Shown: positions 32,475 to 36,255, counted from the stretch's first letter. The stretch: 64,000 nucleotides of DNA from Candidatus Latescibacterota bacterium (GCA_965248435.1 OZ252100.1:2080001-2144000), one strand, 5' to 3'. Numbers and translations: made by a program. The notes: a model not told the origin generated them from the letters alone.

Positions 32475-35400
32475 CTAATTCTCTACCTCTAGTCCCACAA
32501 ATAACCGGCTGTATTCATCCGTGAGTGGATCAATTTCGCTCTTATGGGCTGCTCGGGCGAACACCACCCCCGGATTTTCGGACCGCCGTGCGCGCGCCAA
32601 CACGTGATAGCCGCCAGGCGCACTCTGTGTCTCCAGGTCGCGATTGATCTCCGCCATCTCCACCAGCATGTTGGCCAACCCCCATCTAGCGCCAATCGTT
32701 CGCGTCAGAATCTCCTCAGCCGCCAATCCTTCCCGAAATCCGTGCTTCAACGGGATCAATCCGCCCGTTACTGTCCGCGCCGCGCCCTGGGGGGCAACGG
32801 TCTGCCTCAACTGTTGCCAGCTACCGCGAGCACCAGATGCACACAGCATGGCGAGGACGCCGAAAGCGTCATCTTCAAACGACCTGAACGCCGAAAGTTC
32901 CGCGACCACTTCATCCGGATAGGCCTCCCAGGCATCCAGATCGTCTCCTTTCGGAGGCTCTGGAAGACTGAGCCGTGAGCCAACAAAGGCGCTCATCGAC
33001 CCACCCGTTCCGCTGGCGGCCTCAAACCCTTTCTGCCATAATCGCTCGGAAAGGTCCAGTGCTGCTTCTGCCCCGTCTCTTGCCATCACTTGTGCCATCA
33101 GGGTAATGATGGTGTTTTTGTCGATGAACTCTCCCTGTATCTCAATCGGCTCAGCGGCGATCGCCTCGATCTGCTTGCGTCCCTCTTCCGTTGTGCTCAA
33201 GTGAGCGAGTCCGAACAGGGCATCGCTCATCGGATGCATTCTACTGCGCGCAATCAAGCTCGGGTCTCGCTTCAAATGAGCGGCTGCGGTTAGAGCGTCT
33301 CTGGCCGACTGCTGCCCCGCCTCCGTGACGGGCACGAAGACTGCGACCTGATCGCCGTCAAAATCCAGATCCATCATCTTGCAGATCGCCGGCGGGACTC
33401 GAATCGCATCCCCCTCCGCTCGTTCGGGTCGGCAGGCGACAAAGCACGTGGGAGATATGGCCGGAATACGAAACAGAATCGCCCACATCTGCGACAACGT
33501 TTCATCCAGCGCCTTCTCTGCCTTTTTCGAGCGTTTCTCCACCTCGGACGTGCCCACTTTGCGTGCGGCAAACGGGCCGAACAGCGTCCAGGCCATCTCT
33601 TCAGGCAAACCCACTCGATCGAAGCGCATTCCTGGACCCGGCGCAGCGACAGCGCGGCCGCTGAACAGCGCCTGACTCTGAAACCGAAGGTCTTCTGGTG
33701 ACAGCAGTTCGTTATAAAAAGCCTTAACACGATCCGACAGCGTATCTGCAGCCCGTTCGATAAGCACGTCGGGCGCATCGTTCTCGATCATCTGAGCCAA
33801 ACGATCATTCGCCTCCCTTAAAGACGCATTTGCACTGGAATCGCTTTCGCCGACGTGGGTCAGTGGGTGTGCGGACAACCAGGGGTGGGGCACGGGACGG
33901 GCCAGCTTCAGCGTACCTTCCGGTTTTACCGAGAATGTGGCACCTTTCTCATTCAGCGAGACGACCACACCGTCAGAAGCCAACCGCTCCGTCAATCGCG
34001 AAAACACCGGCGCAGGGGGATCGACTTGACTCACATGCCCTTCGGCCAAACGATCGGCCAGGGTATCGGCATCCTTCCGGTCCACGGAACAGGTGTTGAA
34101 AAGATCCCGGATCACTTCAGCAGCCCCCCCCTCTTTCAGCGCAAGAAATTCCATCTCGCCCAGTGACTGAGCTTGCTCTCCGATTCGTGTCCCCGCGCGA
34201 ATCTTCAGCGCGGCCAAATGTTCCGTGCGCCCCCAATAGACCCATCCCGCTGTCGTTCGACGCTTCAGCGCTTCACCGCCTACCTTCAACAGTTCCATTC
34301 CCTCCTCGGGCAGACCATTCGCCTTCAATCGTCTTTGAATCTCCTCGTCTCTTGGAGCACAGAACGGCGGCACAATCACCGGCTGGCCCTCGACCTTCGC
34401 GATCCGTCCGACGACCGCCTCACGAACCTGCCCGATATTCATCCGTGAAGGCAGGCTGCACACGCTCACAATCAGCTCCACGGCAGTTCCATCCTGCAAG
34501 GCCGGCATCTCGGCATCCGGCAGGATCCGAGACACAACCCCCTTCGTGCCGTGGCGATTGCTGATCTTGTCTCCGACCGCGATCCGGTTTGGCAGCATCA
34601 TACGATTCGCAGCCGATTCACTGATCACAATGGCATCTTCGTGCGTATCGCCGTTCCAGGCCATAAACGCCGTGAGTAGATTGTAGCCTGTCCAGAAGTA
34701 GGGATAATCCGGCTCTAATCCAGTCTGCACGAGCGCGGGCTCAGATTCCGGTTCTGCCCCGTCGTATTGCGCTTGAAACTCCTTCCAAGCTCGAAAGTCG
34801 GCGCCTCTCGTGTAGTCGTTCCAGGCCTCCAGGTCGTCTCGCGGCATATCGGGTGAGGGCGGCCCCACCCATTGCCGCATCATGTTCACGCCCATCAATG
34901 CTCGGTTCGTATCATCGTGCTCCAGAAAGGGCACCATGGAGGCTCCTAACCCCAACCGCTTCTCGGGTGCTTCGTCTTCGATTACCAGCTTGCCGTCCCG
35001 GATCGCGGCCCCCTGCGCAACCTCCAGAATCCGATTGATGTTCGGCCCTTCCGCCGTGCAATACGGACAGACACGGCCCTCGTGTGAGGCATCCAATAGA
35101 TTGGTCGCATCCCTGGCTTGACCAAGGACGGGGATGAGCGTGATCCGCCGGAGATGGGTGTGCATGTCCAGCCAATTCGCTCTCTGCAGATACTGAGATG
35201 TAGATTGGTGCTCGAAGAATTCCCGAATCCAGTCCCCCAGCGGCATCCACGTCCTTACCGATTCCGCATCGTCCAGTCCCGGAGGGAAATCCGTCAACCT
35301 TTCAGCCAGAAAATCGAGCAGCTGTTCGCCCACACAGCGAATCTCGGCCTTCTCCAGATTCAACTCCGTCGGGACCGGAATCACGGTTCGAAACAATCCG

Positions 35401-35621
35401 CCGATCTCGAAACTGCCCCATTCATCCGGTTGAGGCACTTCCTCGAATGTCACAGCCACCCCATTCAGCAGCTCAAGGTGCAGGCGACAGGCATACGTCC
35501 CATCTGCTTCCACGCGATACCCGGCCAGCGGCAATCGATCGCCCAGGAGGCTAGGCAATCCATCCTGAATGAACGCATCCCACGAGGCCTTGTGCCAGGG
35601 CGCTCTCACGGAAATGGTCAT
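32475..35621 (-). CDS. Single-chain miniature RNA polymerase-like protein (fused, heavily deleted RpoB + RpoC), ~1048 aa
   Basis: GGAGG RBS before ATG 35621; RpoB motifs [61 protein letters not shown]; RpoC motifs [35 protein letters not shown]. Confidence 0.88.
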
Positions 35622-35661
35622 CTCATTCCTCCAATCTCGATCGTTTCTTGATGTCAAAACG

Positions 35662-36255
35662 CTAGGAAGACCCCGAAATCTTTGTCCATCCTTCCGCAAG
35701 TCGTTTGCGAGCGTGAAACAGACGTGATTTGACGGTCCCTTCCGGAATCTCCAATCGTCCGGCAACCTCATTCAGGGCCAGCTCACCGTCGTGCACCATT
35801 TGGAACACCTCTCGTTTCTCCTCGGGTAAATCGTTGATCAACTGCTGTAACATACGCCGCTGCTCCGACCGCTCGACCTCCACATCCGGTCCCAGCGATG
35901 CCCTGTCGATCATCCAGCCAGGGACCGGTCTTTCCTCATCATCGTCGTCGTGAAGCGTCGGTATCTCCAGCGGCTGTTCGCGCCGACGGCCTTTGCTCCT
36001 TAAATGATTCATCGCCAGGTTCTTCGCGATCCGAAACAGCCATGCCCTGAAAGGCCCCTGGCCTGACCATTGCACCGCGCGTGTCCATACCCTCAGGAAC
36101 ACCTCCTGCGTCAGGTCATCTGCGACGTCAGGGTCGCGCAGAATTTGACGCAAGTGCTCGATCACCTGAGCTTGGTATCGATCGAACAGGAGCGAGAAGG
36201 CCTCTGAATCCCGCTCAGTGGTGCGCCGCATCAAATCGGTATCCGACGGTGCCAA
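35662..36255 (-). CDS. ECF (sigma-70 group 4) sigma factor, co-transcribed with the RNAP-like gene
   Basis: [41 protein letters not shown]; start uncertain (TTG 36255 after AAGGGG, or ATG 36303). Confidence 0.9.

Follow-up and report, generated by a model that had tools for sequence, protein, structure and literature searches.

The stretch of genomic DNA studied here comprises 64,000 nucleotides (nt) from Candidatus Latescibacterota bacterium (GCA_965248435.1, OZ252100.1:2080001-2144000); we call the whole of it the window, and positions are counted within it. It contains a two-gene locus that is a self-contained operon, consisting of a promoter of the extracytoplasmic function (ECF) type, a gene for a 197-amino-acid (aa) ECF sigma factor and a gene for a 1048-aa polypeptide in which homologues of the β and β′ subunits of RNA polymerase (RNAP) form a single chain. 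The chain has roughly 40% of the usual combined size of β and β′, about 60% having been removed. In the interpretation that we think best, to which we give somewhat less than an even chance, the operon provides an accessory single-chain polymerase that uses its own sigma factor. This draws on the homology and architecture of the chain, its set of catalytic residues, the maintenance of the genes, the partnership with the sigma factor, the retention of the clamp helices and a promoter conserved across phyla.

Architecture and origin of the single-chain polymerase

An earlier note on this DNA had drawn attention to an open reading frame (ORF) of about 1048 aa, and this is borne out. Its translation contains all twelve of the motifs quoted there ([112 protein letters not shown]) in the order given, with DLDFDGDQ at residues 751-758 (counted from ATG 35621), that is at 33348-33371, where the note had placed it. 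The longest open frame extends further (32475..35771 on the minus strand, 1098 aa from the first ATG). We place the start at ATG 35621 because the sequence GGAGGA lies 5 nt upstream of it and because a public protein collection contains exactly the 1048-aa form. The 40-nt gap described between the sigma and polymerase genes is likewise correct, running from the TAG of the former (35664-35662) to the ATG of the latter.

The Pfam matches of both ORFs are far beyond chance. The scan with Rpb1 and Rpb2 domain models that the note had suggested finds both kinds of domain in the polymerase, in the order RNA_pol_Rpb2_3 (E 9.7e-5; 22.9 bits, cut-off 21), RNA_pol_Rpb2_6 (E 9.4e-38) and then RNA_pol_Rpb1_2 (E 1.4e-10). 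NCBIfam scores are higher for the bacterial than for the archaeal models, being 185.5 bits against 126 for rpoB and 115.2 against 19 for rpoC, and the profile of the family matches β chains in the PDB at E 2e-72 and β′ chains at 3e-49. The protein has the two double-psi β-barrels that define the two-barrel (multisubunit-type) RNAP superfamily, and is a member of it. It is not an orthologue of the housekeeping RpoB or RpoC, since it falls below the equivalog cut-offs (185.5 against 801 bits for TIGR02013, and 115.2 against 963.5 bits for TIGR02386) and lacks the lobe, flap, zinc finger, trigger loop and jaw. Neither is it a full-length fusion of β and β′; it scores 184.5 bits against a cut-off of 4632 for NF011417 and 180.4 against 5372 for NF007172, and has 1048 aa compared with about 2800-2900 for such fusions. 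The canonical genes, whose presence elsewhere in the genome had also been proposed as a check, are both there at full length some 3.3 Mb away, as rpoB (1262 aa, 1822 bits) and the adjacent rpoC (1363 aa). The polymerase gene is not beside ribosomal protein genes, and there is no α or ω gene in the module.

Matching the family profile to the genome's own subunits shows what has been kept. On β it matches residues 399-530, 602-657, 737-773 and 1029-1258; the fork and hybrid-binding block (polymerase residues 141-255) maps to the first two of these segments and the β active-site half (residues 293-570) to the last two. On β′ (1363 residues) it matches 263-777, with a weak stretch at 91-115 and nothing past 777. 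From this mapping the chain comprises ~520 residues of β and ~500 of β′. Missing from the β part are the β2 lobe and about 255 residues that include the flap. The β′ part lacks residues 1-90, with the zinc finger, and 116-262, which precede the clamp helices; beyond 777 the trigger loop, jaw and C-terminal clamp are missing, amounting to the C-terminal 40% of β′. What remains is β1, the fork, the hybrid-binding block, both double-psi barrels, the β C-terminus, the clamp helices, the bridge helix and a short tail.

Residues 1-140 of the polymerase have no sequence match. Residues 1-215 were folded alone, giving a model with a predicted local distance difference test score (pLDDT) of 89. This superimposes on residues 23-618 of a bacterial β subunit (6j9e_C) with a VIA-align Z of 17.3 and a root-mean-square deviation of 2.9 Å over 214 aligned residues, and on the isolated β1 domain of Thermus (3mlq_A) with a Z of 10.4, while in Foldseek it finds β chains at E 1e-9. 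By these structural alignments to β and β1 the N-terminus is the protrusion with the lobe cut out.

The β′ part starts at PVPHPW, leading into a helical hairpin (helices 596-613 and 618-639 in the model) that is aligned continuously with the clamp-helix region by the family profile (query residues 590-811 with 7ye1_D β′ 269-524). The bridge helix is model helix 976-999, and the protein ends soon after it with a conserved 45-residue tail. The full-length model (pLDDT 66, predicted template modelling (TM) score 0.47, with residues 223-318 and 457-535 below a pLDDT of 50) was used for secondary structure and Foldseek only; in the latter it finds β′ chains at E about 1e-19, with a TM score of just 0.27.

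The active centre

Eight residues are listed as invariant in all two-barrel RNAPs (PMC2919709, section 9). The window polymerase has all of them: D753, D755 and D757, D329 (with E328), K352, K360, R718 and P720. The corresponding E. coli residues are D814, K1065 and K1073 of β, and R425, P427 and the three Asp residues of DxDGD in β′.

Comparisons between loci were made on the best 80 of 179 species-level stretches (one genome per species), and the catalytic residues were aligned for 47 of these, picked for spread. All eight residues are kept in 30 of the 47 members and all five Asp/Lys positions in 38, and D755 and D757 are invariant (47/47). The active-centre blocks are the best-conserved parts of the protein, at 0.72-0.81 compared with 0.49-0.66 elsewhere. 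By region, the hybrid-binding block has a conservation of 0.73, the [10 protein letters not shown] block 0.81, the β barrel 0.72 and the C-terminal tail 0.70. That the best-conserved part of the chain is its active centre favours catalysis.

We note that residues 146-161 (window ~35139-35186), which we take to be homologous to rifampicin-resistance cluster I of β, keep N149 and H156. At the position that would correspond to D516 of E. coli the window protein has Q, and the family Q, D or E; the putative counterpart of S531 varies in the family.

The sigma partner

The upstream gene encodes an ECF (group 4) member of the sigma-70 family, with regions 2 and 4 only in its 197 aa. It matches Sigma70_r2 (E 6.1e-18), Sigma70_r4_2 (1.1e-12) and Sigma70_ECF (6.7e-6) in Pfam, and TIGR02937 (sigma70-ECF) in NCBIfam at 108.9 bits against a cut-off of 42.9. 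Judged from the sequence, TTG 36255 is its likeliest start because the conserved promoter lies just upstream; the conserved N-terminus also fits, and an alternative ATG farther 5′ overlaps the promoter. Orthologues are 42-72% identical between phyla.

A cognate sigma gene, taken as one with a phmmer E ≤ about 1e-30 to that of the window, lies upstream on the same strand in 77 of the 80 loci. The conservation of an upstream ECF gene, another check put forward in the earlier note, is therefore near-universal. Three loci depart from this: the contig of L058 begins 52 nt ahead of the polymerase gene, L076 has no sigma gene within 6 kb, and in L056 the sole candidate is a 30%-identical ECF gene on the opposite strand. 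The sigma gene of L028 is frameshifted. Among 76 measured gaps between the two genes there are 25 overlaps of 4 or 1 nt, 33 gaps of 0-100 nt and 8 of 101-400 nt; the remaining 10 exceed 400 nt because a gene has been inserted, which is an ATP-binding cassette (ABC) exporter in 8 cases and another ORF in 2. The two genes also occur together. Across 168 genomes of the phylum, using a stricter sigma cut-off of E ≤ 1e-40, the sigma gene was found in 63; both genes are present in 62 genomes, the polymerase alone in 3, the sigma alone in 1 (at a contig edge) and neither in 102. Genome G070 carries two sigma and two polymerase genes.

No third gene around the pair is conserved across phyla; the flanks are syntenic within lineages and mostly metabolic. 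Neither is any co-transcribed cognate anti-sigma gene conserved across lineages in the module, contrary to the usual ECF pattern. Prediction of the complex of the sigma with polymerase residues 1-215 and with residues 540-1048 gave scores of 0.21 and 0.24, below the mark of 0.32, and speaks neither for nor against binding.

The inserted exporter is found in 8 Latescibacterota loci (L005-L010, L016, L021, L026); it has 597 aa with ABC_membrane and ABC_tran domains (e.g. L005:2683-4476). These loci have no second promoter motif, so the exporter is presumably co-transcribed, and may serve the operon as an output gene in that lineage. In 16 loci (e.g. L005:18-1902) two co-directional genes lie directly 5′ of the promoter. 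The first encodes 315 aa with an N-terminal C4 zinc finger of the DksA/TraR type (E 1.3e-8) and the second 317 aa with no Pfam match; the window's genome has no homologue of either. DksA and TraR bind RNAP, and a link of the zinc-finger gene to the operon is conceivable.

A conserved promoter

A gapped word search of the sequence 5′ of the sigma gene gave TGAAC-N15-GGTGT in 59 of the 77 loci, where the best shuffled word reached 4. With the relaxed pattern [TC]GAAC-N15-GG[TCA]GTC the number rises to 73 of 77, one Latescibacterota/Gemmatimonadota lineage having GGCGTC or GGAGTC. In 62 of the 80 loci the motif is located immediately 5′ of the operon, and six of the 62 contain one extra match to the relaxed pattern at another place. 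In L056, which has no adjacent sigma gene, it stands directly in front of the polymerase gene. The site in the window scores 27.6 bits with the family matrix, the best in the whole genome. Its form points to a GAAC/GTC-type ECF promoter of the autoregulation kind, which would be used by the sigma factor of the operon.

The exact core with the N15 spacing occurs 7 times in the window's genome, compared with 3, 9, 2 and 6 times at other spacings. Five other complete genomes have 3, 6, 4, 3 and 3 copies of the core, where a reversed control gives 0, 1, 2, 3 and 1 (19 against 7 in all), and in each of the five the extended consensus is present only at the operon site.

The two pairs of genome G070 lie at C1:3367758-3371737 (L169) and C1:1427408-1431186 (L170), with 1508 and 1060 bits respectively. 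The divergent pair has CGGTGTA, and no TGAAC at the expected distance upstream; it may represent a second specificity or a decaying promoter.

Distribution and selection

Relatives of the polymerase are present in 179 species-level genomes from at least seven phyla. By record title the best 80 loci comprise 38 Latescibacterota, 16 Poribacteria, 9 of Chloroflexota type, 7 Planctomycetota, 3 Gemmatimonadota, 2 Armatimonadota, 1 Hydrogenedentota, 1 'Candidatus Moanabacter' and 3 unlabelled. A word-indexed protein search gave 971 proteins with E ≤ 1e-3 among 8000 scored candidates. Of the 120 homologues listed, 116 align over 99% or more of the query. With the window's own protein set aside, identity to the query is 43-65%, and the annotation is just 'hypothetical protein' or the Pfam domains. 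In an exhaustive search of 1.84 billion representatives the top of the list consists of about 65 full-length clusters of roughly 990-1100 aa together with fragments, and the longer proteins, canonical or fused, come in only from about rank 121; the totals of 20,506 (E ≤ 1e-3) and 2,842 (E ≤ 1e-30) include ordinary β and β′. The ESM Atlas contains two clusters of the family, with 73 and 135 members of about 1006-1026 aa. It also contains further unnamed clusters with Rpb2_6 and Rpb1_2 in one protein of 1330-1787 aa, indicating that there are other single-chain β-β′ forms in metagenomes.

Both genes are under purifying selection, with a ratio of nonsynonymous to synonymous substitution rates (dN/dS) of 0.10-0.19 for the polymerase (11 pairs) and 0.07-0.22 for the sigma factor. 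These values, and the search for intact orthologues, answer two further checks in the earlier note: proteins of ~1000-1100 aa with the same deletions are widespread across phyla. A one-off decaying copy of rpoBC, or a misassembly, is refuted by these intact homologues of the same length, which number in the hundreds and come from many assemblies, by their shared deletions and by the dN/dS of 0.10-0.19, and we give it practically no credence.

Within the phylum the distribution is patchy. The polymerase is present in 65 of the 168 genomes, with 21/21 in one genus, 21/31 in another and 0/15 in a third; in the window's own family it is found in 2 of 21 other genomes, and it is absent from a genome of the same genus (97% complete, single contig). 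In the same-genus genome G040 the gene for asparaginyl-tRNA synthetase is kept (71% identity), as is the sequence from window position 38357 onward (84%), while the 9.5 kb between 28800 and 38357 is replaced by 9.1 kb of unrelated DNA (G040:C1:1427258-1436367). Besides the polymerase and sigma genes, the replaced stretch has genes for a GNAT protein, a sigma-ankyrin fusion and an ABC-F protein, and a recombinase remnant, so that the operon lies in a variable stretch in this lineage; in other lineages it looks stably inherited. The 147-aa recombinase ORF, 58 nt downstream of the polymerase gene, has no catalytic N-terminal domain and is probably a remnant. The flanking repeats are short and in two copies only, such as 16 nt at 28907 and 36542 that are 88% alike, and we take these to be chance.

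The patchiness, the replaced block and the recombinase remnant would be expected if the operon travelled on a mobile element, or served in defence against phages or as a backup, for instance by supplying a polymerase out of reach of the phage inhibitors of the host enzyme; the deleted surfaces are, we presume, ones that known phage inhibitors bind. We nevertheless regard this as very improbable. The flanks are ordinary metabolic genes, syntenic within lineages, as in the 21/21 genomes of one genus. None of 72,556 plasmid records and none of 50,697 phage records has a match spanning at least 80% of the polymerase, and the best 80 matches in IMG/VR are 22-27% identical to it, with separate genes in the two that were examined. 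No family in PADLOC 2.0 matches the polymerase, the sigma factor has two marginal matches to CARF3 (E about 0.009), and in PHROGs the polymerase matches rpoB/rpoC-like families only.

Possible function

If the operon encodes an accessory polymerase, the sigma factor would dock on the clamp helices that the chain has kept, as it does in an ordinary holoenzyme. The holoenzyme would read TGAAC-N15-GGTGTC, and the single chain would make RNA at its intact two-metal site. The operon might thus run beside the host polymerase, sustaining its own expression. We infer both the binding of the sigma to the clamp helices and the transcription of the chain from the conserved promoter, including which enzyme uses the motif. 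In the fullest form of this proposal the two polypeptides, together ~140 kDa, would be a complete orthogonal transcription machine of the cellular type, free of α and ω and having a private sigma and promoter; we hold this to be possible, with rather more doubt than belief. The earlier note had proposed an accessory two-gene system, of which the streamlined two-barrel polymerase and its own ECF sigma factor stand; the functions that it offered, namely a dedicated RNAP, an oligonucleotide synthase or an anti-sigma, are not separated by the data.

A number of observations weigh against a sigma-directed polymerase. Both the flap and the β′ zinc finger are deleted. In known holoenzymes the tip helix of the flap anchors region 4 of the sigma factor, and with these elements gone a promoter with strictly spaced -35 and -10 elements is easier to explain with the host core. 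By profile mapping there is no trigger loop. Pattern and matrix scans of six genomes revealed no credible second copy of the promoter, so that no transcriptional output is visible; the four matrix hits that rank after the operon site in the window's genome (22.2-19.2 bits) are all internal to long ORFs, three being in antisense orientation. A catalytic Asp or Lys is substituted in 9 of the 47 aligned members: K352R in L019 and L059, K352A in L078, K360M in L066 and L083, K360A in L070, and D753N in L037, L053 and L068, the last of which also has D329E. R718 and/or P720 differ in 7 other members, two more being ambiguous in the alignment. At least some of the substituted members are still under purifying selection (dN/dS 0.19 for L037/L053 and 0.15-0.18 for pairs with L040). 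Lastly, conservation is just moderate in the clamp helices (0.53) and, among the structured parts of the protein, lowest in the bridge-helix region (0.49, with 2 of 48 columns at or above 0.9).

Several of these points would be accommodated if the sigma factor were only a regulator working with the host core, and the mini enzyme were free of sigma and acted on nicked, single-stranded or RNA templates or made short RNAs. We consider this unlikely, while giving it real weight. The fixed spacing of -35 and -10 is of the usual ECF kind and could be read by a host core that has its flap, which the mini enzyme lacks along with the zinc finger. The sole detectable target of the sigma factor is its own operon, and many ECF sigmas control just neighbouring genes. 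The loss of the RNA-exit elements and trigger loop, and the K352R change in two members, would suit an enzyme of short products; the equivalent E. coli enzyme, K1065R, makes dinucleotides and cannot elongate (PMC2919709, section 9). On such a scheme, however, an ECF sigma that activates its own gene, with no anti-sigma to counter it in the conserved module, would stay permanently on, and the retained clamp helices would require another reason. The start/stop overlaps (25/76), and the one-to-one match of the two genes in occurrence and copy number, are what subunits of a single complex typically show, though co-regulation fits them too.

Another view would have the protein as a mimic of RNAP, holding the sigma factor on its clamp helices as the missing anti-sigma or serving as a decoy for factors that target RNAP, with catalysis secondary or lost. 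It sits where an anti-sigma gene would, co-transcribed, immediately 3′ and often overlapping, and no other gene is conserved in the module. The nine members without a catalytic Asp or Lys keep both the gene and its sigma, and the poor conservation of the bridge helix points the same way. We judge this explanation improbable nonetheless, since the five Asp/Lys positions persist in 38/47 members, with D755 and D757 in every one, and the best-conserved blocks are those that bind nucleic acid and nucleoside triphosphate rather than the clamp helices. Known anti-sigma domains are small, so that 1048 residues with two barrels would be unparsimonious for binding alone.

Genomic context and feature coordinates

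Some ~700 nt 3′ of the polymerase gene, at 30314-31759(-), is a gene for a 481-aa ECF sigma factor (Sigma70_r2, r4_2) fused to C-terminal ankyrin repeats, the ankyrin part of which matches the PADLOC candidate family PDC-M72A (E 1.5e-24). At 22686-27130(-) a BlaI-type repressor (132 aa) is followed by a 1349-aa protein with a BlaR1 M56 peptidase, two-component regulator propeller repeats, a carboxypeptidase-regulatory-like domain and a C-terminal AhpC/thioredoxin-like domain. This pair was considered as a syntenic counterpart of the BlaI/BlaR1-TonB genes found after the polymerase in relatives, and was rejected because tblastn showed no orthology. A 1094-aa ORF at 46540-49824(+) has only a weak C-terminal GNAT match in Pfam, and a 375-aa ORF at 38339-39466(+) has no Pfam or PADLOC match. 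There are no Rfam matches at gathering thresholds between 28 and 40 kb, and no tRNA genes between 20 and 45 kb. Promoter and terminator consensus sequences are no more frequent than in shuffled sequence. The features of the operon are collected in Table 1.

Table 1. Position of the operon and its parts in the window, with the basis on which each was assigned.
Feature	Position	Strand	Basis and remarks
Promoter -35 element, TGAAC	36298..36302	-	Read from the sequence; 5′ of sigma gene
Promoter -10 element, GGTGTC, preceded by C	36277..36282	-	Family motif
Ribosome-binding site of sigma gene, AAGGGGA	36268-36262	-	6 nt 5′ of TTG 36255
ECF sigma gene, 197 aa	35662..36255	-	Likeliest start TTG 36255, stop TAG 35664-35662; Pfam, NCBIfam
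Spacer of 40 nt with polymerase ribosome-binding site GGAGGA (35632-35627)	35622..35661	-	Sequence reading
Single-chain β-β′ polymerase homologue, 1048 aa and stop	32475..35621	-	Pfam, NCBIfam, profile searches
Residues 1-140: β1 (protrusion), β2 lobe excised	35202..35621	-	Structure model and structural alignment
Residues 141-255: fork (GRVCP..EGPNI) and hybrid-binding block (PFLEHDD..NMMRQ)	34857..35201	-	Pfam Rpb2_3, family profile
Residues 256-292: lineage-variable insert, lacking in many members	34746..34856	-	Alignment; mean top-residue frequency 0.01
Residues 293-570: β active-site half, with E328-D329, barrel with K352 and K360, [12 protein letters not shown], β C-terminus	33912..34745	-	Pfam Rpb2_6; conservation 0.72-0.81
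Residues 571-642: β′ N-terminal strand (PVPHPW) and helical hairpin, clamp-helix homologue	33696..33911	-	Profile match
Residues 643-765: β′ double-psi barrel, R718, P720, D753-F-D755-G-D757	33327..33695	-	Pfam Rpb1_2
Residues 766-1048: helical region, SGARG..FREGL, bridge helix, conserved 45-aa tail	32478..33326	-	Alignment to β′ 691-787
Serine recombinase remnant (probable), 147 aa, Recombinase domain only	31973..32416	-	Pfam PF07508, 2.4e-10; PHROG integrase

Comparison with known systems

All transcription in cells is taken to depend on a single core enzyme of five subunits and about 400 kDa. The single-chain relatives that have been studied come, to our knowledge, from phages or plasmids, and their divergence has left them barely recognisable. 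The present family is chromosomal and vertically kept, has clear bacterial β/β′ ancestry with only ~40% of the normal length, and goes one-to-one with a sigma factor and a promoter of its own. The system is compact, consisting of two genes and one 26-bp promoter. Should the chain be active, it would define a minimal set of parts for sigma-directed transcription without flap, zinc finger or trigger loop, and provide a compact orthogonal expression system. As a complete orthogonal machine it would be the smallest known sigma-dependent RNAP, and a natural test of the parts that are needed for promoter-specific initiation. If it were instead an anti-sigma of polymerase shape, it would represent a new mode of sigma control.

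One comparison is with the bacterial core enzyme and its ECF sigma factors. The polymerase has the same barrels, fork, β1, clamp helices and bridge helix as the core, and the sigma shares regions 2 and 4, and a GAAC/GTC-type promoter, with the ECF (group 4) factors; the difference is that there is one chain of 1048 aa in place of two of 1262 and 1363 aa. Natural rpoB-rpoC fusions (NF011417, NF007172), presumably those known in Helicobacter and Wolbachia, likewise place β before β′, but their models have 2839-2890 positions. Such full-length fusions replace the housekeeping enzyme, whereas the polymerase of the window is an extra copy.

The multisubunit RNAPs of phages (the non-virion enzymes of phiKZ and AR9, and the Caudovirales clade) likewise have reduced sets of β and β′ without α or ω, and the N-terminal domain of the window polymerase aligns with those of AR9 and phiKZ with Z values of 13.9 and 11.1. 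They are, however, split into separate chains and encoded in phage genomes, and as noted above the viral matches are distant. Two of the IMG/VR records, L085:7188-12850 and L096:7179-13035, have adjacent but separate genes for a β-like (888 aa) and a β′-like (999 and 1010 aa) protein, which probably belong to the Caudovirales RNAP clade (PMC7481178).

YonO, from the Bacillus prophage SPbeta, reportedly lacks a trigger loop. It is a single chain of ~100 kDa in the two-barrel superfamily, described as having 'very distant homology' to multisubunit RNAPs (PMC5467207). By that description the present family, with profile E values of 1e-49 to 1e-72, is closer to β and β′. YonO is borne by a prophage and its abstract mentions no sigma factor, whereas the family was not found on the phage records searched.

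The literature searched contains no published description of the family. The main text of the ECF classification PMC7826278 does not mention RpoB/RpoC or a β subunit, and PMC8999054 has no mention of RpoB, RpoC, Rpb, polymerase-like, Latescibacter or Poribacter. The combination of polymerase and sigma is thus likely to be a new family, although this is not proven, and the system against which it must be set is one that we compare by description.

That system is Orf6 of the yeast linear plasmid pGKL2, in architecture the nearest of those described, and it qualifies the claim in the earlier note that single-chain fusions of this size were unknown. In the published accounts Orf6 is an Rpb2::Rpb1 fusion (PMC2919709, PMC6211774). 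It still has both barrels as well as the protrusion, fork, hybrid-binding domain, switch 3 and bridge helix, and is without the trigger loop, lid and rudder (PMC2919709) and the rim helices (PMC6211774). The fusion is there called unique among RNAPs, and in phylogeny groups with the poxvirus enzymes (PMC6211774). The pruning of Orf6 and of the window polymerase is very similar, as judged from these descriptions. Orf6 differs in belonging to a eukaryotic cytoplasmic element of viral affinity, in needing Orf7 for the C-terminal regions of β′, and in using an upstream conserved sequence (UCS) promoter, with no sigma factor in the accounts concerned. If active, the polymerase of the window would be a bacterial parallel, and possibly a relative, of this yeast killer-plasmid enzyme.

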